Source: Verrucomicrobiota bacterium (GTDB taxonomy: Bacteria > Verrucomicrobiota > Verrucomicrobiia > Verrucomicrobiales > Verrucomicrobiaceae). From it: 64,000 nucleotides of DNA. Both the position numbers and the translations under genes were made by a program. The stretch covers positions 58,349 through 122,348 of the forward strand of contig JAFLEI010000016.1 in the NCBI GenBank assembly GCA_017301975.1, written 5' to 3'. Under the pieces are notes generated by a model. The model did no database searches and was not told the DNA's origin. It saw only the letters and a program-made list of their open reading frames with translations. This document shows, one piece after another, positions 24,836 through 43,532 of the stretch. Position 1 is the stretch's first letter. Each line of letters starts with the position of its first letter.

Positions 24836-25025
24836 GGCGAAAAGGGGGAAAGAACAGGGGCGGCGAGAATAGACAGTGCCGGTGGGAGTGCAAGGGCTCG
24901 CAGCGCGGATGGGTGAACTATCAAGGTCTGTGAATAGTTCGGAGAACGGTGGCTCTCTTACAATCAACTGAATTGAGGAGCGCCCAGATGGTCGCTTGTT
25001 CACAGCTTTGAAAATCTGCTCATAT

Positions 25026-28000: not shown

Positions 28001-31000
28001 CGCAGCCGACAGCCCCGGCACGGCCTTCTTTGCAGGTGCGGTGGATGAAGTCACGCTGCATCAGGCCCCCTTGTCCCAGCCCGACATCCTTGCGCTGCGC
28101 GATCTGCGCCACGCCACCAGTATCGTGCCGCAGAATCTCTCGCCACAGATCACAAACCCGGGTGCGCAAGCTTCGCTCATCGGCGCGGTGGTGTCCTTGC
28201 CCGTCACGGCGAATGATCCAGAGAACGATCCCATCACCTTCAGCGCCACGGGGTTGCCCACCGGACTTTCGATCTCGCCGGGTTCCGGAGTCATCTCGGG
28301 TTCTGTGACGGTGGCTGGCACGTTTAATGCCACCGTTATGGCCAGCGATGGCATCAGCGCACCTGCCACCGCCGCCTTCGCCTGGAACGTCTCCGCAGGG
28401 CTCACGCTGCAGCCACTGGCCGCCGCACCGAAAGCCACAGGCTCTGCGCTCACCTTCACCGCGCAATCCGCGAACGGCATCAATACGCGCTACAAATGGA
28501 ACTTTGGCGATGGCACGCCTGAGACCGCATGGCTCACGACCACGAGCATCGCGCACACCTACGCCGGACCGGGCCGCTATCTGGTGACTCTCACCGCCAC
28601 CGATGACACCGGCATCACGATCACCAGTACCTTCTATCAGGCGGTGTATGCCGCACTCACCACACGCAAGCCCGCCGCCTCCAGCAGCATCGTCTATGAG
28701 CATCCAGCCACCGGCAATGACCGCGTCTGGTGTGTGAATCCGGACAACAACAGCGTCACCGCCTTTGATGTGGTGACGCGTGCACGCTATGCCGAGATCA
28801 CCGTGGGCACCGCTCCACGCAGCCTGGCGCTGGCACCGGACGGCAGGCTGTGGGTGACGAATGTGGAGACGGGAACGATCAGCATCATCAACACCACGAC
28901 TCGTGCAGTCGCCGCCACGGTGACGCTTGCCTATGGATCACGTCCGTTCGGCATCGTCTTTGATCCTGCGGGCACGGCCGCATGGGTGACTCTGGAAAGC
29001 TCTGGGCGCGTGCTGAAGCTGAACCCCAGCACCGGAGCCCAACTCGCTTCGATCGATGCCGGCGGCCCTGTGCGGCATCTCTCCATTTCCGCCGACAGCG
29101 CACGCGTGTATGCCTCACGCTTCATCACGCCACGCGTGGCCGGTGAAAACACCGCCACACCGATGCTCACGGGCGCAGGTGGTCAGGTGGTCGTCATCGG
29201 CACGGTGGCGCTTGCAGTGGAACGCACGATTTTGCTCAATCCCAGCACCGCTGCGGACACCTCCACTTCCGCACGTGGTCTGCCAAACTATCTTGGTGCT
29301 GCCGTCATCTCCCCCGACGGTCTCTCCGCCTGGGTGCCTTCAAAGCAGGACAATATCCAGCGTGGCATGCTGCGCGATGGCCAGCCTTTGAACCATGAAA
29401 ACAGCGTGCGTGCCATCGTCTCGCGCCTTGATCTCACTGCGCAGACGGAGCACCTGCCTTCACGCGTGGACATCGACAACGCGGGCATGCCCAGCGCCGC
29501 AGCGTTTGATCCGTATGGCATCTACGTCTTCACCGCGCTCGAAGCCAGCCGCGAGGTCGCGATTCTCGATGCGTGGTCACATCAAGAAATCACCCGCTTT
29601 CCCGCAGGCCGCGCACCGCAGGGCGTCGTCACCTCGCCGGATGGCAGCACGCTGTATGTGCAGAACTTCATGGATCGCACGATCACCGTGCACGATGTCA
29701 GTGGCATCACTCAGGGCGGCAACATCGCGCCAGTAACCACGGCCACGCTCAATGCCGTCACCACGGAAAAACTCACCGCCCAGGTGCTGAAGGGGAAACA
29801 GCTCTTCTACGATGCGCAGGACCCGCGCCTCGCGCTGCAGCAGTACATCAGCTGCGCCGTCTGCCACAACGATGCCGGACACGATGGCCGCGTGTGGGAT
29901 CTCACCGGCTTCGGTGAAGGCCTGCGCAACACCATCACGCTGAAAGGCCACGCCACTCACGGCATGCTGCACTGGACCGGCAACTTCGATGAAGTGCAGG
30001 ATTTCGAAGGGCAGATCCGTGCCCTGGCCGGCGGCACCGGACTCATGACAGACACGCAGCTCAACACCGGCACGCGCAACCAGCCGCTCGGCGATGCGAA
30101 GGCGGGAGTGAGCGCCGATCTCGATGCGCTGGCCGCGTATGTAAAATCCCTCACCGTCAACGGCAACAGCCCGAGCCGCACCAGCAGCGGCGCACTGACC
30201 ACGGCAGCCACAGCGGGGCAACAGGTCTTCCGCTCGCAAAACTGCGCCTCCTGCCACAGCGGGGTGAACTTCACCAACAGCGCGCTCAATGTCTTTGCCA
30301 ATATCGGCACCATCAAACCCGCCAGCGGCAAACGCCTCGGCGCGGCGCTCACCGGTCTGGATGTGCCCACGCTGCGCGGGAGCTGGGCCACGGGGCCGTA
30401 TTTGCACGATGGCTCTGCGGCCACGCTTTCCGACGCCATCACCGCGCACAGCGGCGTGACGCTGACGGCCACGGACTTGTCCAACCTCGCTGCGTTTGTC
30501 GCCAGCATTGACGATGCCCCCACCACGGCACCTTTGCCATTCACCGTCGCACTCACCACCGCCGCCACGAATGTGACCACCTCATTCAACGTCACGGTGG
30601 CCTTCAGTTCCTCGGCCTCAGGTTTCACGCTCAGCGATGTCGTCGTCACGAATGGCGTTGCCTCCACCTTCAGCGGCAGCGGCGCGAGTTATACCTTCAG
30701 GGTCACCCCCACCGCTGCAGGTTTGGTCACCGTCAGTGTTCCAGCCAGTGCGGCCACAGACAGCACGAGCCTGGGCAACTCCGTCTCCAATCTGCTCAGC
30801 GTGACTTATACGGACACCACGCCGCCGACAGTCGCGCTCACCACTCCGGCCACCACCGTTGCCACGCCCTTTGTCGTCACCGCCACCTTCAGTGAAAACG
30901 TCACCGGCCTGCTCGCTGCCGAATTCGCCGTCACCAATGGCAGCGTCACCGCCTTGTCATCCGCTGGTATGGTGTGGTCTGCCACCGTCACACCCACCGC

Positions 31001-34000
31001 TGCAGGAGCCGTGACTGTGAGGCTTCCCGCAGGCATGGCGCAGGATGCCTCGGGCAATCCGAACACGATTTCCAACTTGCTGACGGTCACCTACGCTCCG
31101 GTCATCGTGGGGCAGACCGTGAGAATCCAGGCGGAGGATTTTGACGAAGGCGGGGAAGGGGTGGCCTATCACGATGCTGAAACCATCAACATCGGCGAGG
31201 TTGTTTCCGGCCTGCATTACCGCACCACCGGAGTCGACATCGAACCTTCCAAAGACACGGATGGCACGCCCTCCATCGGCTGGATCACGCCTGGCGAATG
31301 GCTGCGCTACACCACCATTCTCCCATCAGGGAGCTACAACTTCAGCGTGCGCGTGGCCACATCCTATGCAGGTCCGGTTCCGGTCCGCGTGCTGATCAAC
31401 GGCACTCTCGCCACGACGATCAATGTCACCGATACGGGGGGCTTTTATTCCTGGAAAACCTTCTCCGCCACAGGACTCACCCTGCCTGCGTCTGCCGTCG
31501 TTCGCATCGAGTTTCCAAACGGCAATCTCAACTTCAACTGGATGGAGTTCGTCAACACCAGCAGCCCGCCCGACACCACGCCACCAGCGGTCACACTCGC
31601 CACGGGTTCCGCCAGTGTGTCTGCGCCATTCACCGTGAGCGCCGCCTTCAGTGAAGCCGTCACCGGAGTCGCGTTGACTGATTTCACAGTCACCAATGGC
31701 GTGGCTTCAGCGTTGAGCGGCAGTGGTGCAACCTACAGCGTCACCGTCACACCCACAGCCAATGGAGCTGTGACCGTGGCCATGCCCGCGGGTGCTGCTG
31801 CAGACGCCGCCAACAATGCGAGCCTCGCGTCAAACACCCTGAGCGTGACCTACACCGCGCCCGTGCCTGCGCCTACGATTCAGCTCAGCACTGCCTCGTC
31901 GAATGTAACAGGTCCCTTCACGGTGAACGCAGTCTTCAGTCAATCCGTCACCGGCGTGGCTTTGAATGATTTCATCATCACCAATGGGGCGGCCTCAGCT
32001 CTCAGCGGCAGCGGCGCCACCTACAGCATTCTTGTCACACCCACGGCGGCTGGAGCCGTCACCGTCAGTGTGCCCGCCAATGCTGCCACCAACGCCACGG
32101 GCGGAGCCAACACGGCTTCGAATCTGCTCACCGCCACTTACACACCTCTGGACACCACGCCGCCTTCAGTCGCGCTAACAACTCCGGCCAGCAGCGTCAC
32201 CGCGCCGTTTGTGGTCACGGCCACTTTCAGTGAATCCGTCACCGGAGTCGCCTTGAATGACTTCACGCTCACCAATGGCGTTGCTTCCGCTTTGAGCGGC
32301 AGCGGCACGACCTACAGTGTCACCATCACACCCGCAGCCAATGGCGCTGTGACCGTGGCACTGCCTGTCGGCGCGGCCTTTGACGCCGCCAGCAATGCGA
32401 GCCTGGCTTCCAACACCCTCAGCGTGACCTACACCGCGCCCCTGCCTGCGCCCACGGTGTTGCTCAGCACCGCCTCGTCCAATGTGACGGGTGCCTTCAC
32501 GGTCAATGCCGTTTTCAGTCAATCCGTCACCGGCGTCGCATTGAATGATTTCACCATCACCAATGGTGCGGCCTCCGCACTGAGCGGCAGCGGTGCCACC
32601 TACAGCATTCTGGTCACTCCTGCGGCGGCTGGAGCCGTCACTGTCAGAGTGCCTGCCAATGCGGCCACCAACGCCACGGGCGGAGCCAACACGGCTTCGA
32701 ATCTGCTCACCACCACTTATACGCCTCTGGACACCACGCCGCCTTCAGTCGCGCTGACCACTCCGGTCAGCAGCGTCACCGGGCCGTTTGTCGTCAATGC
32801 CACGTTCAGCGAGAGCGTCACTGGTCTGCTCGCTTCCGAGTTCACCGTTACCAACGGCACAGTCACTGCCTTGTCCTCCGCCGGGGCTGCATGGGCAGCC
32901 ACGGTCACGCCCACGGCAGCGGGCAATGTCACCGTCAGAATCCCCGCAGGCGTGGCGCAGGATGCCGCTGGCAATCCGAACACAGTGTCCAATCTCATCA
33001 CTGTGAGCTACACACCTGTGGTCAACACCAACGGCCTCACCGGAGACTACTACATCGGTAAAAACTTCGAGCAGTTCAGCTTCACGCGCATGGAGTCCAC
33101 GGTCAATTACACCTGGGGCACCGGCAGTCCAGATCCACGCATTCCTGCCGATGGCTACAGCGTGCGCTGGCATGGATACCTCATTCCTCGCTTCACCCGG
33201 ACCTACACCATCATCCCTGTCACCGATGACGGCGTGCGTCTCTGGGTCAATGGCCAGCAGGTCGTCAATGATTGGAATAATCACGGCGACACCTGGAACA
33301 ACGGCGTCATCGCTCTGCAGGCCGGCGTGGCCGTCCCTGTCGTCATGGAGTACTACGAAAGCACTGGCGGCGCCACCGCCCGGCTGCTCTGGGAATGCCC
33401 CGGCCAGACGCGCGAGGTGATCCCGCAAAGCCAGTGGCTCGTCAATGCGCCTGCGGCTCCGGCGGCCTCGCCGAACACCATCGTGCTTGCCTCCATCATT
33501 CCCGGCACCATCGGTCTCCCTAACAACCTCGCCACGACCAACAGCGATGAAGACAGCGCTTCGGACCTTCTTGAAGTCGCGCTCGGCACCGCGCTCACCA
33601 GCGGCATCACCCGCCCCGGTGAAGGCTTGCAGTTGGTCACGCGCGGCAACAGCAGCGTCGATGCCACCCTGCTGCGCCCGTCAGGTCAGGGCACCTTCAC
33701 CTTCAGGCTCGAAAGCAGTGGCGATTTGATCAACTGGTCCCCGCTGGTGGCGGCACCGGCAGTCTTCGCTGAAGGCAATGGATGGGAGCGGGTGACGTGG
33801 CCGGATCTCCAGTCTCTCCCCGGGCAGAGCATTGAGCGTGGCATCATCCGTCTGCGCATCACTCAAACCAACGGCGGCAGCGCCACCAGTTTGCCGTTGG
33901 GCTGGCAGCAGACCACGCTCAATTCGGGCACCCAGACCTATGGCCTCAATCTCAACCATGAGGCGCTCTTCACCGGTTCGGTCAGCAGCGCCACCGCCGC

Positions 34001-34835
34001 CAGCGTCACGCTCAGCGAGCAGGCGTCCGTGGCCTCCGCCATGGATCCCGCGCAGCATTACTATCTTGAAATCATCAGCGGTCCTCAGGCCGGGCATCGC
34101 CTGGATCTGCAGAGCATCACCGGCGTCGCGTGCCTCGTGGCGGATGACTCCCTCCATACCACGCTCCCGGCTTCCGCAGTGGCCGGCTTGTCCGGCGCGC
34201 GTGTGATCCTGCGCCCGCACCGCACGCTGGGCGAGATTTTTAATCCCGCATTCTTTCAGGGTTCCTCCACTGCCACGGGCGCAGATCAGATCTTGTTTCA
34301 CACCGCATCGGATTACATCACTTACTGGCTCTATGAGCTTGGAGGCACCCGCAACTGGGTCTTGAACGGAGGCACCGCGGCCAGCATGAATGACACCCTC
34401 ATTCCACCTGGCACAGGCGTGATGCTTCAAATCGCCAGCGCCAGCCCCTCCGCATTGCTCAGCACCGGCAGTGTGCGCACCACTCCCTTCGCCCGCCCGC
34501 TGCAGGCTGGCTACAATCTCTTCGCCAATCCCTGGCCGCTCGACGCCACGCCTGCCCAGGCCGGGATGATCTCTTCCGCCTTTGTTGCCAGCACTTCGAT
34601 TTCCGCTTCCTCTCAATTGCAGCTTTGGAAAGGTGATGCCACGGGGGGGCTGAGCGGATATCTGGCCCACTGGCTCTTGCAGAGGTCAGGGCAGCCCGTT
34701 CCCGTCTGGATCTCTGCGAGCTCTGCCTCCATCATTTCTCAGAACAATGTCCCGCTGCTGCGCGCGGGTCGCGCCACCTTCATCAAAATGCCGCCTGCGG
34801 GCAGCCCGGTTGTATGGATCATTCCTCCGCCGTGA
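25026..34835 (+). CDS. Giant secreted multidomain protein (3,269 aa) combining a copper-radical oxidase, a beta-propeller, a di-haem cytochrome c peroxidase, lectin-like modules and Ig-like repeats
   Basis: ATG 25026 gives the signal peptide MKRVNASFQLRGRRIRPGLRGLCVLLLLGVGNLVKA. Approximate domain map in nt: 25250-26670 galactose/glyoxal-oxidase-like kelch propeller + DUF1929 (HDMFCGG, RWYNTS, NYHSLAMLLPDGRVWSGGGG, THSVD). 26680-26930 He_PIG/cadherin-like Ig. 26940-27420 PA14-like. 27430-28100 LamG/ConA-like. 28130-28400 He_PIG. 28400-28650 PKD (WNFGDG). 28660-29760 YVTN/YncE-type beta-propeller. 29770-30480 di-haem CCP/MauG-like (CAVCH 29853-29867, CASCH 30243-30257, VPTLRGSWATGPYLHDGS). 30520-31100 two Ig-like units. 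31100-31560 CBM6-like. 31560-33010 five Ig-like units. 33030-33440 PA14 (GLTGDYY...RLLWE). 33440-34832 unassigned C-terminal region. Confidence 0.9.
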   Translation: MKRVNASFQLRGRRIRPGLRGLCVLLLLGVGNLVKADSVSHAEADALMAEAARLAPAAEAVVMSIGAVSPAEYVTKGNWSAVIPWTPHIPTSAAMLPDGRLLTFASNQRTTFPDGPQFTYAAVWDPATGLFTEINNGRHDMFCGGLSFLQDGRLLVNGGNGINGTTAFASLFDWRTNEWVPAQTMADGRWYNTSIALPNGEVLTAGGNGGANGNGTIEQWNASSGWRRMSGISWQTVANPPIANAIETNWHPFFLVAPDGRVAHFGPHQALNWITASGTGAMTAAGVSIPGTHYPKQGAWAMYAPGKVVVAGGLTAIDDGVVVNKAFTVDLNGATPVVAPTAPMANARSFSNSVMLPNGEVMVVGGNTSGQFFSDLGAVFTPEIWNPTTGQWRGVADMSVPRNYHSLAMLLPDGRVWSGGGGLSGDALTDHQDAQVFTPPQLFNVDGTPAVRPVITAAPDRIGPASIFTVNASNGVQYFSAVSMSAQTHSVDTGLRHVRFTHTNPSPGVYAVTAPPSINVLTPGYWMMFAVDANGVWSVSRIIQVTNSTLPVVTNPGQQSVTQNSVVSLPISASATGGTLSYTASGLPTGLAIDASTGLISGSVTATPGTYRSTILVSAAGQVASVSFNWIVLLPNLGSGQIMREYWTNINGATVASLTGNTVFPANPNGRDLQPSFDSPQNWDDSTGQRLRGFLYVPVTGQYQFFISSDDESSLKLSTDANPANAVEIASQPGYTPPQTWTWYPQQTSALITLQAGQRYYIEALMKDGTGDDHLSVGWKKPGDAAVSIIAGTYLSPYLPIENPVVAWNFDEASWNGTAGEVKSTASGLVAINGTASGGANTTSDNPALSGNPGTGSSALFNGTTQSVVMPYSASLNPNDFTIAAWVRSDAALGTARCVLTSRDESTATKKGYGLWVTTDGFWQLRTGADASALKGGAVTVGQWTHVAATFRTTTAVGSLLTGVRRLYINGILVNEDTGTYVPNASKPFIVGAADSPGTAFFAGAVDEVTLHQAPLSQPDILALRDLRHATSIVPQNLSPQITNPGAQASLIGAVVSLPVTANDPENDPITFSATGLPTGLSISPGSGVISGSVTVAGTFNATVMASDGISAPATAAFAWNVSAGLTLQPLAAAPKATGSALTFTAQSANGINTRYKWNFGDGTPETAWLTTTSIAHTYAGPGRYLVTLTATDDTGITITSTFYQAVYAALTTRKPAASSSIVYEHPATGNDRVWCVNPDNNSVTAFDVVTRARYAEITVGTAPRSLALAPDGRLWVTNVETGTISIINTTTRAVAATVTLAYGSRPFGIVFDPAGTAAWVTLESSGRVLKLNPSTGAQLASIDAGGPVRHLSISADSARVYASRFITPRVAGENTATPMLTGAGGQVVVIGTVALAVERTILLNPSTAADTSTSARGLPNYLGAAVISPDGLSAWVPSKQDNIQRGMLRDGQPLNHENSVRAIVSRLDLTAQTEHLPSRVDIDNAGMPSAAAFDPYGIYVFTALEASREVAILDAWSHQEITRFPAGRAPQGVVTSPDGSTLYVQNFMDRTITVHDVSGITQGGNIAPVTTATLNAVTTEKLTAQVLKGKQLFYDAQDPRLALQQYISCAVCHNDAGHDGRVWDLTGFGEGLRNTITLKGHATHGMLHWTGNFDEVQDFEGQIRALAGGTGLMTDTQLNTGTRNQPLGDAKAGVSADLDALAAYVKSLTVNGNSPSRTSSGALTTAATAGQQVFRSQNCASCHSGVNFTNSALNVFANIGTIKPASGKRLGAALTGLDVPTLRGSWATGPYLHDGSAATLSDAITAHSGVTLTATDLSNLAAFVASIDDAPTTAPLPFTVALTTAATNVTTSFNVTVAFSSSASGFTLSDVVVTNGVASTFSGSGASYTFRVTPTAAGLVTVSVPASAATDSTSLGNSVSNLLSVTYTDTTPPTVALTTPATTVATPFVVTATFSENVTGLLAAEFAVTNGSVTALSSAGMVWSATVTPTAAGAVTVRLPAGMAQDASGNPNTISNLLTVTYAPVIVGQTVRIQAEDFDEGGEGVAYHDAETINIGEVVSGLHYRTTGVDIEPSKDTDGTPSIGWITPGEWLRYTTILPSGSYNFSVRVATSYAGPVPVRVLINGTLATTINVTDTGGFYSWKTFSATGLTLPASAVVRIEFPNGNLNFNWMEFVNTSSPPDTTPPAVTLATGSASVSAPFTVSAAFSEAVTGVALTDFTVTNGVASALSGSGATYSVTVTPTANGAVTVAMPAGAAADAANNASLASNTLSVTYTAPVPAPTIQLSTASSNVTGPFTVNAVFSQSVTGVALNDFIITNGAASALSGSGATYSILVTPTAAGAVTVSVPANAATNATGGANTASNLLTATYTPLDTTPPSVALTTPASSVTAPFVVTATFSESVTGVALNDFTLTNGVASALSGSGTTYSVTITPAANGAVTVALPVGAAFDAASNASLASNTLSVTYTAPLPAPTVLLSTASSNVTGAFTVNAVFSQSVTGVALNDFTITNGAASALSGSGATYSILVTPAAAGAVTVRVPANAATNATGGANTASNLLTTTYTPLDTTPPSVALTTPVSSVTGPFVVNATFSESVTGLLASEFTVTNGTVTALSSAGAAWAATVTPTAAGNVTVRIPAGVAQDAAGNPNTVSNLITVSYTPVVNTNGLTGDYYIGKNFEQFSFTRMESTVNYTWGTGSPDPRIPADGYSVRWHGYLIPRFTRTYTIIPVTDDGVRLWVNGQQVVNDWNNHGDTWNNGVIALQAGVAVPVVMEYYESTGGATARLLWECPGQTREVIPQSQWLVNAPAAPAASPNTIVLASIIPGTIGLPNNLATTNSDEDSASDLLEVALGTALTSGITRPGEGLQLVTRGNSSVDATLLRPSGQGTFTFRLESSGDLINWSPLVAAPAVFAEGNGWERVTWPDLQSLPGQSIERGIIRLRITQTNGGSATSLPLGWQQTTLNSGTQTYGLNLNHEALFTGSVSSATAASVTLSEQASVASAMDPAQHYYLEIISGPQAGHRLDLQSITGVACLVADDSLHTTLPASAVAGLSGARVILRPHRTLGEIFNPAFFQGSSTATGADQILFHTASDYITYWLYELGGTRNWVLNGGTAASMNDTLIPPGTGVMLQIASASPSALLSTGSVRTTPFARPLQAGYNLFANPWPLDATPAQAGMISSAFVASTSISASSQLQLWKGDATGGLSGYLAHWLLQRSGQPVPVWISASSASIISQNNVPLLRAGRATFIKMPPAGSPVVWIIPPP
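31572..32729 (+). repeat. Intragenic tandem duplication, 2 x 579 bp (two Ig-like units per copy)
   Basis: The landmark gacaccacgcc recurs at 31572, 32151 and 32730, an exact period of 579. B units are about 92% identical at the aa level (VPAPTIQLSTASSNVTGPFTVNAVFSQSVTGVALNDF... vs LPAPTVLLSTASSNVTGAFTVNAVFSQSVTGVALNDF...). A units are about 80% identical. Confidence 0.8.
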
Positions 34836-34868
34836 AACGGGGCGGGATCAGATGCTTGAGCACAGCAA

Positions 34869-37800
34869 TCACTGACCTGCCGGTGGCCTCCGTATAGATG
34901 CTGATGGCGGTCCGTTGATGCGCGTGTTTTCGCGAATGAGGCGAATGCGTTTGAAGAGTGGCTCCGCTTCAGTGTCGCGCTTCTGGGCTCTGAGCATGGA
35001 GCCCAGACTGGTGAGCCGGGGGATCAGGACCGGGTGATCTGCACCATGGATTTTTTCTTCGATCGCCAAGGCGCGGCGGTAGAGCTGCTCTGCTTCCTGG
35101 CTTGTGTCATCGGTATTGAGTTGAAAGGCCAGCCGTCCCACACTGAGCGCCACTTCTCGATCCATGGGGCCCAGAAGTTTCTCGCGGATGGCCAGCGACC
35201 GGCGGAGCAACGGAGTCGCCTCCCTGCCGTTTTTCGTCGGAGCCAGAGCCAGGGCAACGCGATCAAGGCAGTCGGCGGTTTTCAGACTCTCCGGCCCGTG
35301 TTCTTTTTCGCACAGCTCCAGCGAGCGCCGGTAGAGCGCCGCAGCGTCCTCATCGCGGTGGGTGCGGTGAAGCACAGCCGCGAGGGCGTCCAGGGCTGCG
35401 ATGAGATCGGCCTGCTGAGGGCCGGGATTTTCCTCCGCCAGTTTCACCACGCGCAGCAGCAGTTGCTCCGCCTGGTCGAACAGGGGCGCGGCCTTGGAGT
35501 AGAGCGCCTTGTATTGCAAAAACTCGGCGCAGTCATTGAGCAGGCTGCGTGTGACCTGCGCGTCTCCGGCCTTGTCATGGAACTGACGCTGAAACTCCAG
35601 CACCCTGGACACATGGGGAAGGGCAGGCTCCCAAACCTCCCGCGGCCGCACGCGCTGTGTGGCCGGATCTTTGGCCATAAGGGCATGCATCAGTGAGGTG
35701 GCACGGCCAAGAAACCCAGCTCCACCCTGAAAGCGCAAGACCGCCTGCAACTGCGGAGGACAACTGATGCTCATCGGCTCCTGCGTGATGAGGGCATGGC
35801 GCTCCAGTTCATCGAACGCTGCTTCCACCTGGGTGCCGGGTGATTTCTCATTTGCGGCATCCGCCACAAGCCTCGCCTGCTCGGTGAAAAAAGGCAGGGG
35901 CACAGCTTCCTCGGCGAGCCATGGCAGCAGGGCCATGAGCGCACGCGCCGTGGGTGTCAGGCGCTTCGCTGAAAGCTGCCATGTCGTGACCAAGATCTTG
36001 TCCGGGGAAGTCTCGTTCGGTGCCGTCGTTCCCTTGAGTCCGGCTGACGCCTGATCCCATCGCTTCACATACTCGGTCAATGTCAGTTTTTGCTCCGTGA
36101 TGCATGCCGCCGCCATGGCAAGCGAGAGAGAGTTTCCTTTCATCTGCTGCACCACCTTTGCCGCATCAGGCTCCGTGAACTTGGCCGCAGGGAGATGGGA
36201 CAACTGCTCTTTGAGAAACGCGACAGCCGTGCGCTCATCCCAGATCTTGCCATTCAGTTTCAGGACGGCGCGCAGGCCTTCGTCCTCAGCCTCTTTCTTT
36301 TTCAAGGTCTGCCGCAGGGCCTCGTAACTCTCGAAGGTGTCCTTGGTAAAAGGATGTCCTGCTCCCAGCGTCTTTTTGCTGATCGTGATCGCACGCAGAT
36401 ACAGCTTTTTCGCTTCCTCCGGCCGCTGTTCATTCACGAGGAAACGGGCGTAGTGACTCAAGGTGACAGCCACCTGGACATCTTCCGGACCTTTGCGCTT
36501 TTCCAGAATGGCCAGGGAGCGGAGCAGCAGCTGCTCAGGCTCCTGGTGCTCTCCTGCTTCGACCAGGTAACCTGCCAGCCCTCTGAGATCCACCGCCACC
36601 GTTTCATGCTCTTTTCCCAGATGTTTCTCATGGATCGCCAGTTCACGGCGCAGCAGAGGCACGGCCTCCTCCCAGCGGTTCATGTCACTCAGGCACTGGG
36701 CGATCATGGCCAGTGAGCCGGTGAGGATGCGGGCGTCCATGCCGTAGTTCTTTTCCGCCACATGCAGCTCTTTGCGGTAGGCTGCTTCTGCCTCAGGATA
36801 ACGGCTGAGCGATCTCAGTGCGTTGGCAAGGTTGCTCAAAGGCACGAAAAGACTCTGGTCATCAGGTCCCTTGGTCCGCTCGATGGTGGCGATGCACTTC
36901 TCCAAAACATCCAGGGATCGGATCAGCAGTTGCTTTCGCTCCTTGGAGTCTCCTGCTTCTCCCACAAAATCCGCCAGCCTGGCGAGATCGGCAGCCACGG
37001 TTTCACGATCCTCTCCCAGAAGTTTCTCATGAATCGCCAGCTCACGACGCAGCAGAGGCACGGCCTCCTTCACGCGCTTCAACGTACGCAAAGTCTGGGC
37101 GAGGCGGATCAGAGGATCGACAAGGCTGAGGTCTTCCGGGCCTTTCGTTCTCTCAATGTTTTCGACGATGCGCTGCTGCAAGGGCTCTGCCTCTTGATGC
37201 AGGTTTTGCTCGCTGAGCAGTTGCGCCAGTTGAACACGGCATGCGCAGGTGGTGGCAGCATCGGGCCCCAATGCTTTCTCCTGCACGGGCAAAGATAGGC
37301 GGTAGAGTGGCAGGGCTTCCTTCCTGCGCTGGGTTCGCTCCAGCACCTCCGCCAAAGTGTAGGCCACCTGGGCGGTGAGCGGATGCTTCGGCCCCATGAT
37401 TGCGGTGCGAATTTCCAGCGCGCGGCGGAGCACGGGCTCTGCTTCGGTATTGCGCGCTTGGGAGAGCAGCAGACCCGCGATGATCGCGTGGCAGGTGGCA
37501 AGGTCGCCATGCTCGGCGCCGACGGCCTCCTCGTGAATCTGAAGCGCCTGCTGGTAGAGCAGTATGTTGCCACGACCTGTCAGAATGATTTCCCGCAGGT
37601 CTTGCGCTTTGTTGAGCTTGGAACTGACCGCAAGATGCCTGAGTCCTGAGAGACTTTCATGAAGCTTCAGCAGTTCGACGTACTCGACAAACGCGGAGTG
37701 AGATTGGTGCATGCTCAACAGCAGCTCCGCTTTGCTTCCCAGAAAGGTGGCCGCTTCCAGGGAGGCTGCTCCAGCCGGGCGCTGTTCAAGGCATGTCAGC

Positions 37801-38138
37801 AGCCGCTCATAGAGCTCCAGCGCCTCTTTCTCCCGGCCTGTTTGCCGCAGCAGGTCGGCGAGATTGTTCAGACTCGATTCAAGCTCGGCAGAAGTCACGC
37901 CTCCGGCTTTCTCCCGAATCGCCAGCGCTAGCCGGTAGAGCGCCTCGGCCTCCTGAAAGCTGTCTGCCGCTTCGAGGTGGCTCGCCAGTTCGCTGAGGCG
38001 TGCCGCCACCTCGGGTGCGGCCTTTCCATGTTCCTGCTCAGCCTTCGCCAATGCCTCACGCAGCCGCGACATGCCGGCTGATTCCGCCGCATGCGCAGCG
38101 CAGAGTGCACTGAGGAGAAAAAAGACGATGAATCTCAC
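34869..38138 (-). CDS. Signal-peptide TPR protein (1,089 aa) with an internal P-loop-less NB-ARC-like (ARC/winged-helix) remnant
   Basis: MRFIVFFLLSALCAAHAAES is the signal. It is followed by about 600 aa of TPR_12-like repeats, including an internal duplication (AVPLLRRELAIHEKLLGEDRETVAADLARLADFVGEAG / AVPLLRRELAIHEKHLGKEHETVAVDLRGLAGYLVEAG). Next comes LKLNGKIWDERTAVAFLKEQL...GNSLSLAMAAACI...LTEYVKRW...ILVTTWQLSAKRL...LMALLPWLAEEAVPLPFF...AFDELERHALI, which is like the GLPL and winged-helix parts of NB-ARC. About 250 aa of TPR follow. No Walker A seen. Confidence 0.75.
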   Translation of the reverse strand: MRFIVFFLLSALCAAHAAESAGMSRLREALAKAEQEHGKAAPEVAARLSELASHLEAADSFQEAEALYRLALAIREKAGGVTSAELESSLNNLADLLRQTGREKEALELYERLLTCLEQRPAGAASLEAATFLGSKAELLLSMHQSHSAFVEYVELLKLHESLSGLRHLAVSSKLNKAQDLREIILTGRGNILLYQQALQIHEEAVGAEHGDLATCHAIIAGLLLSQARNTEAEPVLRRALEIRTAIMGPKHPLTAQVAYTLAEVLERTQRRKEALPLYRLSLPVQEKALGPDAATTCACRVQLAQLLSEQNLHQEAEPLQQRIVENIERTKGPEDLSLVDPLIRLAQTLRTLKRVKEAVPLLRRELAIHEKLLGEDRETVAADLARLADFVGEAGDSKERKQLLIRSLDVLEKCIATIERTKGPDDQSLFVPLSNLANALRSLSRYPEAEAAYRKELHVAEKNYGMDARILTGSLAMIAQCLSDMNRWEEAVPLLRRELAIHEKHLGKEHETVAVDLRGLAGYLVEAGEHQEPEQLLLRSLAILEKRKGPEDVQVAVTLSHYARFLVNEQRPEEAKKLYLRAITISKKTLGAGHPFTKDTFESYEALRQTLKKKEAEDEGLRAVLKLNGKIWDERTAVAFLKEQLSHLPAAKFTEPDAAKVVQQMKGNSLSLAMAAACITEQKLTLTEYVKRWDQASAGLKGTTAPNETSPDKILVTTWQLSAKRLTPTARALMALLPWLAEEAVPLPFFTEQARLVADAANEKSPGTQVEAAFDELERHALITQEPMSISCPPQLQAVLRFQGGAGFLGRATSLMHALMAKDPATQRVRPREVWEPALPHVSRVLEFQRQFHDKAGDAQVTRSLLNDCAEFLQYKALYSKAAPLFDQAEQLLLRVVKLAEENPGPQQADLIAALDALAAVLHRTHRDEDAAALYRRSLELCEKEHGPESLKTADCLDRVALALAPTKNGREATPLLRRSLAIREKLLGPMDREVALSVGRLAFQLNTDDTSQEAEQLYRRALAIEEKIHGADHPVLIPRLTSLGSMLRAQKRDTEAEPLFKRIRLIRENTRINGPPSASIRRPPAGQ

Positions 38139-38217
38139 CCCGGCATTCCGTCAGAAATCGGATGCCGTGGAAAGTAAAAAATGGCGAGCTCATGAAACGA
38201 GCTCGGCATCTCAGTCC

Positions 38218-38332
38218 TCAAGGCTCCTTCAAAGCCGGTGGCCGATGACTCTGGATCTGCGCCTTAAAGTCTCCGAGGCTGTTCCAATGCGTGGGCGCAT
38301 TGAGGTCGACCTCAGCGATGGCCAGCGTGCCA
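38218..38332 (-). pseudogene. Ghost copy of the 3' end of the carbon-nitrogen hydrolase gene
   Basis: 38251-38332 matches 39397-39478 at 78 of 82 positions. The minus-strand translation GTLAIAEVDLNAPTHWNSLGDFKAQIQSHRPPALKE(P)* equals the last 38 aa of the intact gene. All 11 nucleotide differences I counted are synonymous. Confidence 0.8.
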
Positions 38333-38391
38333 CCTTCATCAAGATGCCGCAGAGGGCCAGCCCTTCCATCTGGATCATTCCAGCGCCGTGA
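38327..38391 (+). pseudogene. Ghost copy of the 3' end of the giant gene, abutting the hydrolase ghost
   Basis: 38327-38391 matches 34771-34835 at 50 of 65 positions, in the same frame and with the same TGA. RATFIKMPQRASPSIWIIPAP* compares with RATFIKMPPAGSPVVWIIPPP*. Confidence 0.65.
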
Positions 38392-38475
38392 GTATCTGAA
38401 TCCAGCTTTCGGGCCTGCGGTGGGCAGAGTTTTATCTTGCGACATGACGCATGATTTTTTAGTCTGCGTGAGGTC

Positions 38476-39333
38476 ATGCAGCTCACGCTCCATCGTACGC
38501 TATTGATTCACACCCTGCTCTTGGTTGGCATCGGTGGATATCTGGTGTCGCATCGTCGAGTTCCAGACAAGACGGTTCCTGTCAAACACGTGCGCATGCC
38601 CACCCAGGCGGAGCTTCTGGAGATCGAGCGTTTGGGAGCAGAACTGAGAGGACAAAGCGCCGAGCACTTGGGAGGCCTTAGCAGAGATCCTGAGGATTTG
38701 GATCGGCGCTACCGTCATTTGATCGATCTTCAGTTGGGCTATATGCTGCCGGAACATCCAGAGGTCGTAAACAACCGCAAAGATCTTGCTCGTGTATTGA
38801 AGCGCAAAGGTGCGTATGCGGAAGCGGCGGAGCAGTATCGTATTTTGTTGAAAGTCTATCAGCGTGTCATGGGGACGGATGATCCAGATACATTGAGCTG
38901 TCAGAAAGATTTGAAGGAGGCGATGTGGCATGTGACCCAGGCTGAGGAGGCTGAGCAGAGACTTCGTGAAGAGTACAAGCGGCAGTCGGTTGCCCGAGGA
39001 AAAGAGGATGGCCGGGTATTGATGATTCAGGCGAAGATTGCGGATCAACTGATGAATCAATCGAAGTGCTCTGAGGCTGAGGGGGAATTGCGTGCTATGG
39101 TGAATATTCTGCTCAAGAAGCAGGAAAACACTTTTCCGCCAGTTCTCTTGTACATGGTCAAATTGATCATGTGTCTCGAAGTCCAGGGCAAACGGAAAGA
39201 GGCTTTGGAATTTGTCCAGGAGATGGAGTGGCTGCAGGCCGATACTCCTGGGCTAGAGCTTTTACGGACGGACGGTGCGACCAGGCTGCGTGCAGAAATC
39301 AATTCCGGACGGCTCAAGCCCCGCATGAAGTAA
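38476..39333 (+). CDS. Membrane-anchored TPR-like protein
   Basis: 285 aa. N-terminal TM LLIHTLLLVGIGGYLV, then TPR-like helical repeats (KDLARVLKRKGAYAEAAEQYRILLKVYQRVMGTDDPDTLSCQKDL). GC is visibly lower than the surroundings. Confidence 0.6.
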   Translation: MQLTLHRTLLIHTLLLVGIGGYLVSHRRVPDKTVPVKHVRMPTQAELLEIERLGAELRGQSAEHLGGLSRDPEDLDRRYRHLIDLQLGYMLPEHPEVVNNRKDLARVLKRKGAYAEAAEQYRILLKVYQRVMGTDDPDTLSCQKDLKEAMWHVTQAEEAEQRLREEYKRQSVARGKEDGRVLMIQAKIADQLMNQSKCSEAEGELRAMVNILLKKQENTFPPVLLYMVKLIMCLEVQGKRKEALEFVQEMEWLQADTPGLELLRTDGATRLRAEINSGRLKPRMK

Positions 39334-39366
39334 GTGGGTATGCTGAAGCGAAGTGCGGACTTCGCC

Positions 39367-40695
39367 TCACTCCTTCAGCGCAGGAGGCCGGTGGCTCTGG
39401 ATTTGCGCCTTAAAGTCTCCGAGGCTGTTCCAATGCGTGGGCGCATTGAGATCGACTTCCGCGATGGCCAGCGTGCCAAACACATCCGCCTTTGCCAGCA
39501 CATCGCCATAGTGATCAAAGATGCCTGAGATCATCCACTGGTTCTTGGTGGCGTCCGTGTAGGTGCTGCTGACGATGTAGACGTGATTTTCGCAAGCGCG
39601 TGCAGCGGCGAGCATGGGATTGCAGCCCCACACCGGCCAGGCGATGACTTCGGCTCCCTTGATCGTGAGCGCGCGGGCGACTTCAGGGAAGAAGCCGTCG
39701 TAGCAGACCATCATGCCCACTTTGCCAAAGCGCGTGTCGAAAACCGGGTAGTCATGGCCGGGCGTGATGCCAGACTCGATCTCGCCACGCGGCAGGGTCA
39801 CCTTCCGATACTTGCCCACCAGCGTGCCATCCGGGCCCAGCAGCGCAGAGGTATTGTACAGCGTCTTGCCCTCACGCTCCACGAGGCCGGCGACGATGTA
39901 GAGATTGTGCTCCTTCGCCAGCTTGCCGAAGTACTCCGTGCTGGGCCCGGGCACCGTCTCGGCACAATCGGCCATCGTCTTGCCTGTGCCGTAGTAGGTG
40001 AGCGTCTCGCCGAGCACCACAAGATCAGCCTTCTGCCTGGCGGCCTCGGCAATGAGCGGCGCATACTGCGGCGGCTTGTCAGCAGGGTTCTTACCGTCTT
40101 TGGGCTGAAGGTGAATCGTGGCCAGTTTGACCTTGCGTGGCGCAGGGGCTGGCACGGCGGCGAGTGAGACATCACTCCACTCCACCCGAGCATTCGCCGC
40201 CCATTGCAGGTAGAGCTCGATCTTCGCCTGCCTGGCCTTTACCGGCGCACGCAGGGTGCTTCCGCAATGAATCCACTGGTTCGCTTCGCCCTCAGGCACA
40301 TGCGGGTACTCAGGCTCGGCGCGTGGGATGCTGCCCTTCGCGTAGCCTTGCTTCGCAGGTTCCTCCCAGCTCACGGGCTTGCCGTTCTCATCCTGCCACA
40401 AAATGCGGGCATACACGCTGCGACGCGCCGTGGGCATGGCGCTGGCTTTTTTCCATCCGCTGAACTGGTAGTGCTGACCGCCTTCCACCGGCAGCGTGCG
40501 CGTCCAGCAGCCGATCCATTGCTCACCCTCGCCCGTCTCCAAAATGAGCGCGCCTTTGCCCGCATGGCCGCCGTCCTGGCTTTGCACTGCGGAGGGCTTT
40601 GCTTCATCGCGTGGAGACCAAAGCGACCAGCCTTCGGAGACAGCCGCATGGGAAGCGGCGGCGAGGAGACAGAGGACAAGAGTCTGAAGTTTCAT
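39367..40695 (-). CDS. Secreted carbon-nitrogen hydrolase (nitrilase superfamily) with N-terminal beta-sandwich-like domain
   Basis: ATG 40695 gives the signal MKLQTLVLCLLAAASHAAV. CN-hydrolase triad context: DLVVLGETL (Glu), GKYRKVTLP (Lys), MMVCYDGFFPE (Cys). Confidence 0.85.
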   Translation of the reverse strand: MKLQTLVLCLLAAASHAAVSEGWSLWSPRDEAKPSAVQSQDGGHAGKGALILETGEGEQWIGCWTRTLPVEGGQHYQFSGWKKASAMPTARRSVYARILWQDENGKPVSWEEPAKQGYAKGSIPRAEPEYPHVPEGEANQWIHCGSTLRAPVKARQAKIELYLQWAANARVEWSDVSLAAVPAPAPRKVKLATIHLQPKDGKNPADKPPQYAPLIAEAARQKADLVVLGETLTYYGTGKTMADCAETVPGPSTEYFGKLAKEHNLYIVAGLVEREGKTLYNTSALLGPDGTLVGKYRKVTLPRGEIESGITPGHDYPVFDTRFGKVGMMVCYDGFFPEVARALTIKGAEVIAWPVWGCNPMLAAARACENHVYIVSSTYTDATKNQWMISGIFDHYGDVLAKADVFGTLAIAEVDLNAPTHWNSLGDFKAQIQSHRPPALKE

Positions 40696-40778
40696 GCGGG
40701 AGGGTACGGTGGCTGGTGCCACAGTCTTGTGCAGCACCAGCACGCTCCCTCTGAATATTTGACCCGGCTTCGAGCCAG

Positions 40779-43532
40779 TCACTTCTCATCCAGCCCGCGC
40801 CGGATGCGGTACTTGATCGCAAGCTGATGCGCCGGGGAATTGGCAAACGTCAGGCCTTTGATGCGTTCGAGCTGCAGCAGGGCCTCGCTCTGCACGGCGG
40901 GGTAGTAGCTGTTGCTGTGGGAGACGTACAGCAGGCGGGTGATGTAATCGAGCTGCAGGTTCTGGCGCATGATGCTCACGGGCTTGGTGGGATCATCGCC
41001 GGTGCAGATGGCGGTGGTGAGGGTGTCCATGACTTCATTCAGGCTCACCTCATTGCCATAGAGGGCTGTGTCCTCGATGCGCTTCAACGTATGGGAATGC
41101 ATGAGCTGGTCGAGCAGGGCATGGTGGACCTGAAAGAGGCGATCGTGGAGCTTGGGGTCTTCGCCTTCGTCACGATGGTCAAAGCCACGGCGCTGAAGCT
41201 GGAGGTGCGCGTAGAGTTCCGGCGGTCCGGCGAGGGCATCCGGGGCAAAGGCATACTTGGCCAGCGCGGCGAGGGCCTGGCGCTGCTTGGCAGCCTCCAC
41301 GGGTCTGAACGGCACCACGCCTGGGGCCTGGCCCTGCACGGCGCGTTCGACATACACTCCGCCAACGTAGCGTGAAATCGCGTTCAGCGAGCCGCTGGCC
41401 TCCTTGGTCAAAGAGGCGAAGGCCTGCGCGACCTCCTGCCAGCTCCTGCCAGGATCGGACACATCCTTGAAGATGTTGGCGATCTCTCCTCGCACGATTT
41501 CACAACGCTGCTCGCCGTACTGGATGGCATCGCTGCTCATGTCATAGAGCATGGCGCGGGGATCAATAGCCTTGCCGGGATAGCGCATGTCATCGGCGTC
41601 GTTGGCAAAGGCGAGCTCAGGCTTGTGCGAAAGCGCAGCGATGGCTTCCAGGCGCTTCGTTTCTTCAACCGGGTCTTCCAGCGCTTCGCTGTAGCCATAT
41701 TTGATCACCCAGTGGTCATACGGGCCCGGCTTGGTGGTGAAGTACTGGCCCTGCTTCACGCCCTTGGGCGCGATGTTGACGGGCGGATAGTCCATCACAG
41801 AACCGGTCAGTCCGGTCTTCTCCGTGAGCTCGGCATTGTGGATGTCCTTGAGGCTGTGAAGCTGGCTGCCACGGAAGTTGTGGTTCAAGCCGAGCGTGTG
41901 GCCGACTTCATGCAGGCAGAGGTAGTAGAGGGACTCCTTGATGAGGCGGTCCACTTCCACGCGGTCGCTCTTCTGCAGGCGCAGCATGGTCTGGCCAAAC
42001 ATGAGACCGTTGCGGGCGGAGCCGCAGGCATCGCAAGCGTGCGGGTTGAAGGCCTTGGCCGTGTCCGCCGTTTCAGCCGCCCCCGTGCCGAGATCGGCAA
42101 AGAGCTTCTTGGTGAGGAGGCGCTTGGTGATGAAGCTGTACTCCAGCATGATGTCCGCGCCGAGGATCTCGCCGGTGCGTGGATTGGCAAAGCTGGGGCC
42201 GTAGCCGCCGAAAGGCGGATTCACGCTGCTGGTCCAGCGCAGCACGTTGTGCTCGATGTCACCGGCGTCCCACTTGGCATCCTCGGGCTGCTGCTTGACG
42301 ACGACGGCGTCTTTGAACCCGGCCGTCTCGAAGGCTTCATTCCACTTGAGGACGGCGCTGCGGATGGTGTCGCGGAATTCAATGGGGGTGGTGTTTTCGA
42401 TCCAGAAGACGATCGGTGTCACAGGCTCGCTGAGGGCGGTGCCGGGTTTCTGCTTCACCAGGCGCCAGCGGTGGATGACATCGCGGTAGGGGGCGACATC
42501 GGTGCTGGTCATGTCGGTGATCTGATGGGTGAAATAGCCAATGCGCGGGTCGTCAGCGCGCGGCTTGTAATCACTCTCTGGCATGGCGATGAGGGTATGC
42601 TGCACCTGGACGGTGATGTAGCGGGGGTTGGCCACATCGGCCTCCGTTTGCCAGGTCGGCGAGGGGTTTTCAAAGACATACTCGGCCGTGATGGCGGTGT
42701 TCTTCGGGTAGCCCATCACGCGCAGGACTTTGGACTTCGGTTCAGAGAGGCGGCCGAGCACGGCCTTGTCGCCGCCCAGATTGCTGAATTTCACTGGCGT
42801 CAGGTTTTCCCGCAGAAACAGGTTGGTGCAGGAGATGAGATAGGCGTCGGGATCCTCCGCCACGATGATCTCGCTGTTGAGAATGGCGCTGCTGGTGTTG
42901 GCCGTGTGGGCTTTCGACAGGGCGTTTTGCGGGTCGAAGTAGAGCTTGGTGTTTTGCTCGATCAGTTCGATGCGGTCGAACATCTTGCGGATCGTGAAGA
43001 CGAGCGAGTCGCCGTATCGGCCGCGGTTGTGACCGGAGGCCACCGGGCCGTCCACACTGTGGTTGAAATAGATGAATTCAGGTCCGCACTGGTTCTTGGC
43101 AACGACCAGCCAGGGGTTGCCACGTTCAACATCCAGATAGACGCGGAACAGACCGTCGATGCGTTTGAAGCCCTTGGTGAACTCGTCGATGGACTTGCGC
43201 TTGGGCTTGTTGTCGTCGCTGCTCTTGGTCAGGGAGGTGGTCCGGGCAGGCTGCGTCGGCGGCGGACTGGAGGGCGCGGGTGGTGTGGGGGCAGGCGCGG
43301 GTTTGACGGGCTCAGGCTTTGTGGGCTCTGGCTTGGGTTCAGGCTGCGGCTCAGGTTTTGGCTGTGGCTTTGGCTCGGGTTTTGCTGGATCAGGCTTGGC
43401 AGGGTTCGGCTCGGGCAGCGGTCTGACAGGAGCCGGCTGAGGCTCTGGTTTAGAGGGCGCTGCCGGTGCTGCGGGCGCGGGAGCCAGGGGCAGGAGCAAG
43501 GCTGAGCAGACTATCAGGATGCGGCGCGACAT
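40779..43532 (-). CDS. Secreted zinc metalloprotease (DUF4953/DUF5117-type) with Pro/Lys/Glu-rich N-terminal linker
   Basis: 917 aa. Signal peptide, then a (K)PEP-rich low-complexity stretch (PKPQPKPEPQPEPKPEPTKPEP). Zincin motif LCLHEVGHTLGLNHNF. Confidence 0.85.
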   Translation of the reverse strand: MSRRILIVCSALLLPLAPAPAAPAAPSKPEPQPAPVRPLPEPNPAKPDPAKPEPKPQPKPEPQPEPKPEPTKPEPVKPAPAPTPPAPSSPPPTQPARTTSLTKSSDDNKPKRKSIDEFTKGFKRIDGLFRVYLDVERGNPWLVVAKNQCGPEFIYFNHSVDGPVASGHNRGRYGDSLVFTIRKMFDRIELIEQNTKLYFDPQNALSKAHTANTSSAILNSEIIVAEDPDAYLISCTNLFLRENLTPVKFSNLGGDKAVLGRLSEPKSKVLRVMGYPKNTAITAEYVFENPSPTWQTEADVANPRYITVQVQHTLIAMPESDYKPRADDPRIGYFTHQITDMTSTDVAPYRDVIHRWRLVKQKPGTALSEPVTPIVFWIENTTPIEFRDTIRSAVLKWNEAFETAGFKDAVVVKQQPEDAKWDAGDIEHNVLRWTSSVNPPFGGYGPSFANPRTGEILGADIMLEYSFITKRLLTKKLFADLGTGAAETADTAKAFNPHACDACGSARNGLMFGQTMLRLQKSDRVEVDRLIKESLYYLCLHEVGHTLGLNHNFRGSQLHSLKDIHNAELTEKTGLTGSVMDYPPVNIAPKGVKQGQYFTTKPGPYDHWVIKYGYSEALEDPVEETKRLEAIAALSHKPELAFANDADDMRYPGKAIDPRAMLYDMSSDAIQYGEQRCEIVRGEIANIFKDVSDPGRSWQEVAQAFASLTKEASGSLNAISRYVGGVYVERAVQGQAPGVVPFRPVEAAKQRQALAALAKYAFAPDALAGPPELYAHLQLQRRGFDHRDEGEDPKLHDRLFQVHHALLDQLMHSHTLKRIEDTALYGNEVSLNEVMDTLTTAICTGDDPTKPVSIMRQNLQLDYITRLLYVSHSNSYYPAVQSEALLQLERIKGLTFANSPAHQLAIKYRIRRGLDEK

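Follow-up and report, generated by a model that had tools for sequence, protein, structure and literature searches.

A chimeric junction of two gene ends in a Prosthecobacter lineage as the probable scar of a microhomology join between two haplotypes

According to PMC6382021, homology-facilitated illegitimate recombination (HFIR) produces joints of 3-10 bp that have been documented experimentally in S. pneumoniae, A. baylyi and P. stutzeri, the sources cited there being from 2002 (de Vries and Wackernagel; Prudhomme et al.) and 2003 (Meier and Wackernagel). The locus described here resembles the HFIR products of these three species in being a one-sided addition joined at a short GC-rich microhomology (7 bp in our case), in having flanking genes that are intact, as homologous exchange leaves them, and in carrying a short duplicated fragment at the novel joint. 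It differs from them in being a natural scar only, in having a homologous anchor side for which there is a candidate only, and in that its partners would be allelic versions of one locus rather than unrelated foreign DNA. The join point of a tandem duplication has a similar appearance, with the end of a downstream gene followed by the end of an upstream gene and microhomology at the joint; here, however, diverged haplotypes with different cargo appear to have been brought together, the repeats are 91% and 77% identical, and the differences in the hydrolase piece are all synonymous.

Chromosomal integration hotspots between conserved core genes are a concept of comparative genomics, and the locus shares with them a single intergenic site between conserved convergent core genes at which the accessory content varies. 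Unlike such hotspots, this one holds two TPR genes of fixed position, plus a 123-nt tandem repeat in one genome, and no mobile-element genes. A further likeness is to the orphan C-terminal/immunity modules of Rhs and CdiA systems, in which, likewise, a small variable gene comes after a 3' fragment displaced from a very large gene. In contrast to these modules, the fragment seen here is a conserved 21-codon tail rather than a variable toxin domain, it has no toxin or immunity signature, and it occurs a single time, joined to part of the gene that flanks the site on the other side.

In the window, by which we mean the whole 64-kb stretch of DNA that was analysed, genes were identified by Pfam and found in the order giant gene, TPR1, a junction of two ghost gene ends (hyd' and giant'), TPR2 and hydrolase, which is unique among the loci compared. 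We consider it quite likely that the junction, at positions 38218-38391, is a functionless scar left when one illegitimate recombination event, probably of the HFIR type, joined two diverged haplotypes of the same Prosthecobacter site. The genes concerned are as follows.

24996..34835, plus strand: giant gene, 3279 aa, intact, assigned by Pfam, orthologues found
34869..38138, minus strand: TPR1 (cargo 1), a TPR_12/TPR_10 repeat protein of 1089 aa, assigned by Pfam
38476..39333, plus strand: TPR2 (cargo 2), a TPR protein of 285 aa with a hydrophobic N-terminal stretch, assigned by Pfam
39367..40782, minus strand: intact CN-hydrolase gene, ending ...ALKE-stop (Pfam CN_hydrolase)
40779-43532, minus strand: DUF4953 Met-zincin gene (Pfam), its stop overlapping the hydrolase start

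The other neighbours scanned look, by Pfam, like ordinary core genes (topoisomerase subunit A, adenylosuccinate lyase, PSCyt2/PSD1 and DUF1501). The Pfam domains of the giant protein (glyoxal/galactose-oxidase-like, seven Big_12, PA14, LamG, CBM6/35, PKD and di-haem cytochrome c peroxidase) are of adhesin, carbohydrate-binding and oxidase types only, and its tail, GRATFIK...WIIPPP-stop, is conserved across species. The glyoxal/galactose-oxidase-like domain lies at its N-terminus, and the protein also has a di-haem cytochrome c peroxidase/cytochrome c segment. Written as a pattern, the C-terminal tail that is kept across species reads GRATFIK-(variable 8-9 aa)-W[IVM][IV]P[PA]P-stop, and such a motif could have a sorting or recognition role. 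Orthologues of TPR1 are present in six of the related loci (L002, L004, L007, L009, L082 and L085), with similarity that is mosaic along the length of the gene. Within TPR1 there are internal repeats of 250 nt that are 72% identical (36494-36743 and 36893-37142), and a segment of ~270-300 nt (36836-37136 in the window) is missing from L002, L004 and L007, from which the repeat number appears to vary inside the gene.

TPR2 belongs to a tiny family (eight clusters in 5.8 billion proteins), and all of the contexts that were looked up have the giant gene on one side of it and the hydrolase or TPR1 on the other. Its hydrophobic N-terminal stretch resembles a membrane anchor and lies within the first ~50 residues, which are conserved; the TPR part diverges fast (43-70% aa identity). 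We considered its low GC content (52.6%, vs about 61%) as a sign of recent foreign origin and rejected this, because low GC is a trait of the family: all orthologues are at 51-57%, and the composition of TPR2 thus gives no indication of a recent foreign origin. A perfect hairpin, GCGAAGT-GCGG-ACTTCGC, lies at 39348-39365 between the convergent stops of TPR2 and the hydrolase; conserved in part in L008, it is probably a bidirectional terminator.

To place this arrangement among its relatives we compared 21 related Prosthecobacter loci, the closest genomes being those of Prosthecobacter species. Loci were drawn with the hydrolase from species-representative genomes and with TPR2 from metagenome and Logan contigs. 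Most of the relatives are metagenome-assembled genomes (MAGs); L082 was the one useful locus that the metagenome scan with TPR2 gave, and L085 is a Logan contig. The site between the giant gene and the hydrolase was found in each of the following states.

Neither TPR gene, spacer of 1-54 nt: L001, L003, L006
Neither TPR gene, spacers of 122-855 nt: L018, L037, L010, L005
TPR1 only: L002, L004, L007, L009 (four genomes)
TPR2 only: L008, L084, L086/L087, L088-L091
Both TPR genes, giant -> TPR2 -> <- TPR1 <- hydrolase, with single gene ends and no ghost: L082, L085

The comparison with related genomes that the earlier note had called for thus turned up all four states, with at least seven genomes free of either cargo gene. 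The note's description of the site as a cargo-swapping hotspot holds as far as variability is concerned; free swapping does not describe what was found, since the site has two fixed-position genes that are present or absent. Where TPR2 occurs it follows directly after the giant gene on the same strand, and TPR1, where it occurs, follows directly after the hydrolase on the same strand. The intergenic DNA of L001, L003, L005, L009, L010, L018 and L037 held no TPR2 remnants. The ghost itself was found once among the 21 related loci. A pre-event haplotype of the same species was not recovered, the exact hydrolase, TPR1 and the two ghost-ORF products being without a record; the parents of the junction are therefore deduced from other species, at 80-97% identity. 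Two relatives have spacers of note in their own right. In L005 (Prosthecobacter fluviatilis) a 123-nt tandem repeat of 4.1 copies with 94% matches (11532-12030) stands in place of a TPR gene. About 490 extra nt lie between the giant stop and the TPR1 stop of L009 (at about 8830-9100), and these showed no similarity to TPR2 or to other spacers.

The junction and its flanks are made up of these parts.

38139..38217, minus strand: spacer from hydrolase stop to TPR1 start, native, colinear with TPR1-type haplotypes
38218..38332, minus strand: hyd', the ghost hydrolase 3' end, 36 codons plus an extra Pro codon and a TGA stop (38218-38220)
38326..38332, no strand assigned: junction microhomology, exact 7-nt CGTGCCA, located by three-way alignment
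38326..38391, plus strand: giant', the ghost giant 3' end, 21 codons (RATFIKMPQRASPSIWIIPAP) plus a TGA stop
38392..38475, plus strand: spacer from giant stop to TPR2 start, native, homologous to the spacer between giant gene and TPR2 in L008 and L082

On the hydrolase side, 38224-38332 is 90.8% identical over 109 nt to 39370-39478 (E=2e-39, blastn within the window) with an exact core of 47 nt (38258-38304), and the 78 identities of 82 reported earlier between 38251-38332 and 39397-39478 were obtained again on recomputing. The minus-strand translation of hyd' is GTLAIAEVDLNAPTHWNSLGDFKAQIQSHRPPALKEP, followed by the stop. The earlier note had counted 11 differences over 38 codons, every one synonymous; the synonymy stands, but the recomputed figure is 10 nt over 36 codons. 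The dN/dS of the ghost against the intact hydrolase, which the note had proposed to compute, comes to dN=0 with dS about 0.57 (10/10 differences synonymous), and the probability that all ten would be synonymous under neutrality is 4e-7. Compared with L007, hyd' has three differences, read from the alignment and again all synonymous, and its amino-acid sequence is that of the orthologues. As dN is zero and the protein identical to those of the orthologues, the divergence appears to be older than the join, with little decay since.

The stop-proximal 33 nt of hyd' are more diverged, as had been remarked, and the alignment of the relatives identifies them as the ending of the TPR1-linked allele. 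They do encode ...ALKE as stated, except that the ghost has one further codon and reads ...ALKEP-stop against the ...ALKE-stop of the intact gene. The ending ...ALKEP-stop followed by GGACTG..GCTCGTT is common to the ghost, L002, L004, L007 and L009; ...ALKE-stop is the ending of the cargo-free and TPR2-only alleles in the alignment, and the window's intact hydrolase is among these. The spacer and hyd' together (38139-38332, 194 nt) are colinear with the corresponding spacer and hydrolase 3' end in TPR1-bearing haplotypes, at 92-94% identity to L002, L007 and L009 and 89% to L004, and the spacer on the TPR1 side has a terminator-like hairpin after hyd' (38205-38185, minus strand). With 34900-38332 colinear with TPR1-type haplotypes, the window is TPR1-type up to 38332.

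The giant side gives the complementary picture. Positions 38326-38391 match 34770-34835, where the giant gene has its final 21 codons and its stop (77% over 66 nt, E=5e-9). The previous count of 50/65 between 38327-38391 and 34771-34835 was reproduced, and both the frame and the TGA stop agree. The match to the window's own giant tail is only 51/66; to the giant tails of L002, L007, L009 and L082 it is 62-63/66 (94-95%). No other match to 38139-38475 within the 64-kb window was better than E=0.2. The spacer that follows (38392..38475) is 88-89% identical to that of L008, and holds the conserved block upstream of TPR2 (TTTTATCTTG...GATTTTTTAG) and, after giant', a terminator-like hairpin (38413-38425, plus strand). 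Further to the right, the spacer between the TPR2 and hydrolase stops is homologous to that of L008 and colinear with L084, the hairpin at 39348-39365 included. A sigma-70 promoter scan gave nothing above the shuffled expectation, leaving terminator-like hairpins only, and an Rfam scan of 38000-38600 gave no match. Judged by the colinearity of 38326-39579, both spacers included, with L008, L082 and L084, the window is TPR2-type from 38326 onward.

A TPR1-type left side and a TPR2-type right side make the ghost a join of two haplotypes. That two different alleles were joined follows likewise from the KEP-stop ending of hyd' where the local hydrolase has KE-stop, from the 94-95% identity of giant' to the clade against 77% to the local tail, and from the dN of zero. 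The proposal that the ghost derives from functional, diverged alleles and not from a recent local copy is thus borne out on both sides: by the KEP-stop ending with its TPR1 spacer, and by the closer match of giant' to the clade than to the window's own tail.

The joint was located by a three-way alignment of the ghost with the hydrolase and giant sequences of L002, L004, L007, L009 and L082. The heptamer CGTGCCA is present in both parents, that is, in the hydrolase sequences and in giant sequences of the L002/L007/L009/L082 type, and homology to either parent ends exactly at it. The hydrolase parent reads ...GGCCAG-CGTGCCA-AACACATC and the clade-type giant parent ...ACCGGT-CGTGCCA-CCTTCATC. 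A GC-rich microhomology of 7 nt is a signature of illegitimate, microhomology-mediated joining. The similarities of the two ghost halves to their source genes are, with the counts recomputed, far above chance.

From these parts a sequence of events can be proposed. One parent would have been of the type giant -> <- TPR1 <- hydrolase (...KEP-stop) and the other of the type giant -> TPR2 -> <- hydrolase (...KE-stop). The TPR1-linked hydrolase, 112 nt short of its stop, would have been joined on CGTGCCA to the TPR2-linked giant gene, 66 nt short of its stop, and the product would be giant - TPR1 - hyd'/giant' - TPR2 - hydrolase with both flanking genes intact. HFIR of DNA taken up from a related strain would account for this with a homologous crossover in a flanking gene at one end and the microhomology at the other. 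Upstream of TPR1 and of TPR2 alike, 150 nt or more of the native DNA has been retained, and with it the terminator-like hairpins that belonged to the genes formerly upstream. The unchanged protein of hyd' and the intact state of the whole structure suggest that the event was recent. Natural competence is not known for Prosthecobacter or for the Verrucomicrobiota, and the same scar could have come from end joining or from slippage of replication between sister chromosomes carrying an imported copy.

The order of the two halves, hydrolase end before giant end, had been taken in the earlier note to suit either a tandem duplication or the integration of incoming DNA by HFIR, and the comparison with relatives supports an HFIR-type join of two haplotypes and disfavours a plain local duplication. 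A duplication would have to have arisen in an ancestor with both cargo genes (giant-TPR2-TPR1-hydrolase), followed by loss of TPR2 from the first unit and of TPR1 from the second. The order is indeed that of a duplication join point, haplotypes with both cargo genes (L082 and L085) exist in the same clade, and both ghost halves are clade-like. Yet three events are needed, two of them precise losses. Single-cargo haplotypes of other species, moreover, have giant-TPR1 and TPR2-hydrolase junctions homologous to those in the window, which therefore look inherited rather than newly deleted. The intact hydrolase ends in KE-stop, vs KEP-stop in every both-cargo or TPR1 haplotype checked (a set without L085), and the dS and zero dN of hyd' are not what a dead copy decaying in place would show. 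Since its units also differ (TPR1 against TPR2) and its repeats are far from identical, the structure lacks the marks of a simple tandem duplication, and we regard this origin as unlikely. An assembly chimera of co-occurring TPR1-type and TPR2-type strains is much less probable still. The relatives are mostly MAGs, and the 47-nt exact repeat of hyd' and hydrolase could mislead short-read assemblers, but the junction itself shares only 7 nt, far under any assembler k-mer. The Logan contig L081 (SRR13786856, seen in three samples) runs through the junction and is 100% identical to the window over 38275-39433, ending only within the 47-nt exact repeat, as a real repeat would make it do in a de Bruijn graph. 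L081 is an independent read assembly that contains the junction, which excludes an assembler artefact; its source may be the strain, or the study, that also gave the window, and hence it is no biological replicate.

It is also feasible to read the chimeric open reading frames (38071-38391, plus strand, 106 aa; 38218-38493, minus strand, 91 aa) as small genes under selection, because both frames are open through the junction and a fragment of the plus-strand one was called by the gene caller on L081. We give this reading very little credence. The products have no Pfam match and neither is on record, the plus-strand frame overlaps the start of TPR1 on the opposite strand, and the frames are open simply because the two gene ends they come from were functional until recently. 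The junction is absent from all of the related loci compared, and so is the 38071-38391 frame, conservation of which in related genomes would have spoken for a functional gene; the frames are thus without conservation. Programmed exchange of cassettes, of the integron, shufflon or orphan-module type with gene 3' ends as recombination sites, is brought to mind by ghost 3' ends beside small variable genes, which recall the displaced orphan C-terminal modules of Rhs/CDI systems, and by a site that is repeatedly polymorphic. Against it, no integrase, recombinase or transposase domain was found in the 11 genes scanned from 18 to 51 kb, and the cassette borders, which lie at gene stops and are non-repetitive, have neither att-like nor inverted repeats. 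A lone ghost in the 21-locus comparison does not fit an exchange system either, and the giant protein has no toxin domain, the ghost being only its conserved last 21 codons. Such an exchange is, in our judgment, highly improbable.

In the join of two haplotypes, our preferred explanation, either of the two could have been the resident one, and the following part of the giant gene bears on this.

34550..34835, plus strand: foreign patch forming the giant 3' end, continuing into the TPR1 3' third, to about 36000

As far as about 34550 the window's giant gene groups within the L002/L007/L009/L082 clade (91-94%, as between its members). A sharp break follows, and the remainder, to the giant stop, is 78-82% identical to these four, which are themselves 89-97% identical to one another. 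Over the whole of 34550-36000 the identity to the clade is 78-87%, vs 91-98% in the flanks. The nearest tail to the window's working giant tail is that of L085 (59/66 and 188/220). On these comparisons the working tail is an imported foreign patch, and giant' is the clade-typical tail that this patch displaced or with which it coexists. The extra-clade signal fades at about 36000, inside TPR1 and not at the junction, and the rest of TPR1 and hyd' are clade-like, in part L082-like. The donor may therefore itself have been mosaic, or the patch at 34550-36000 may be a separate homologous import rather than the anchor of the HFIR event.

We slightly favour, from the pattern of identities along the locus, a TPR2-type resident with a clade-typical giant tail that would have imported the segment from the foreign giant tail through TPR1 to hyd'; the homologous crossover would then lie near 34550, the illegitimate joint being that at 38326-38332. 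Should the 34550-36000 patch be a separate import, a TPR1-type resident importing giant', TPR2 and the hydrolase 3' end would be equally possible. A crossover was also looked for in the hydrolase and the zincin, where the similarity declines gradually and no break could be resolved. The 3' end of the zincin gene (40779-41159) is 96% identical to L082 (12455-12835) and 78-92% identical to the other relatives, and the adjacent hydrolase is only 87% identical to L082; this contrast is a further sign of fine-scale mosaic recombination along the locus.

The junction leaves two pairs of diverged direct repeats, hyd' with the hydrolase (109 nt, with the 47-nt exact core) and the giant tail with giant' (66 nt), by which the structure could in principle revert to one single-cargo haplotype or the other. 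The loss of giant' and TPR2 would follow from recombination between hyd' and the hydrolase, and that of TPR1 and hyd' from recombination between the giant tail and giant'. A bolder reading, which we hold to be doubtful, is that the locus is a standing merodiploid-like "heterozygote" of both cargo alleles, in which the scar would serve as an inherent switch that decides which TPR gene the strain keeps. If true, this would also be the first sequence-level evidence of DNA uptake and HFIR-type integration in free-living Verrucomicrobiota.

The mechanism and the general phenomenon are already known, and the finding illustrates them without changing anything or amounting to a new system. As a natural footprint it is unusually legible: both parents can be reconstructed from relatives, the joint is placed to 7 nucleotides, and the flanking genes are intact. 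For annotation it carries a warning, as the ORFs of 106 aa and 91 aa are artefacts of the scar. For the organisms themselves, it is evidence that mosaic recombination between Prosthecobacter lineages has been heavy at the locus of the zincin, hydrolase, TPR and giant genes, and it shows how a second accessory gene can be gained at a polymorphic site of the core genome without a mobile element.
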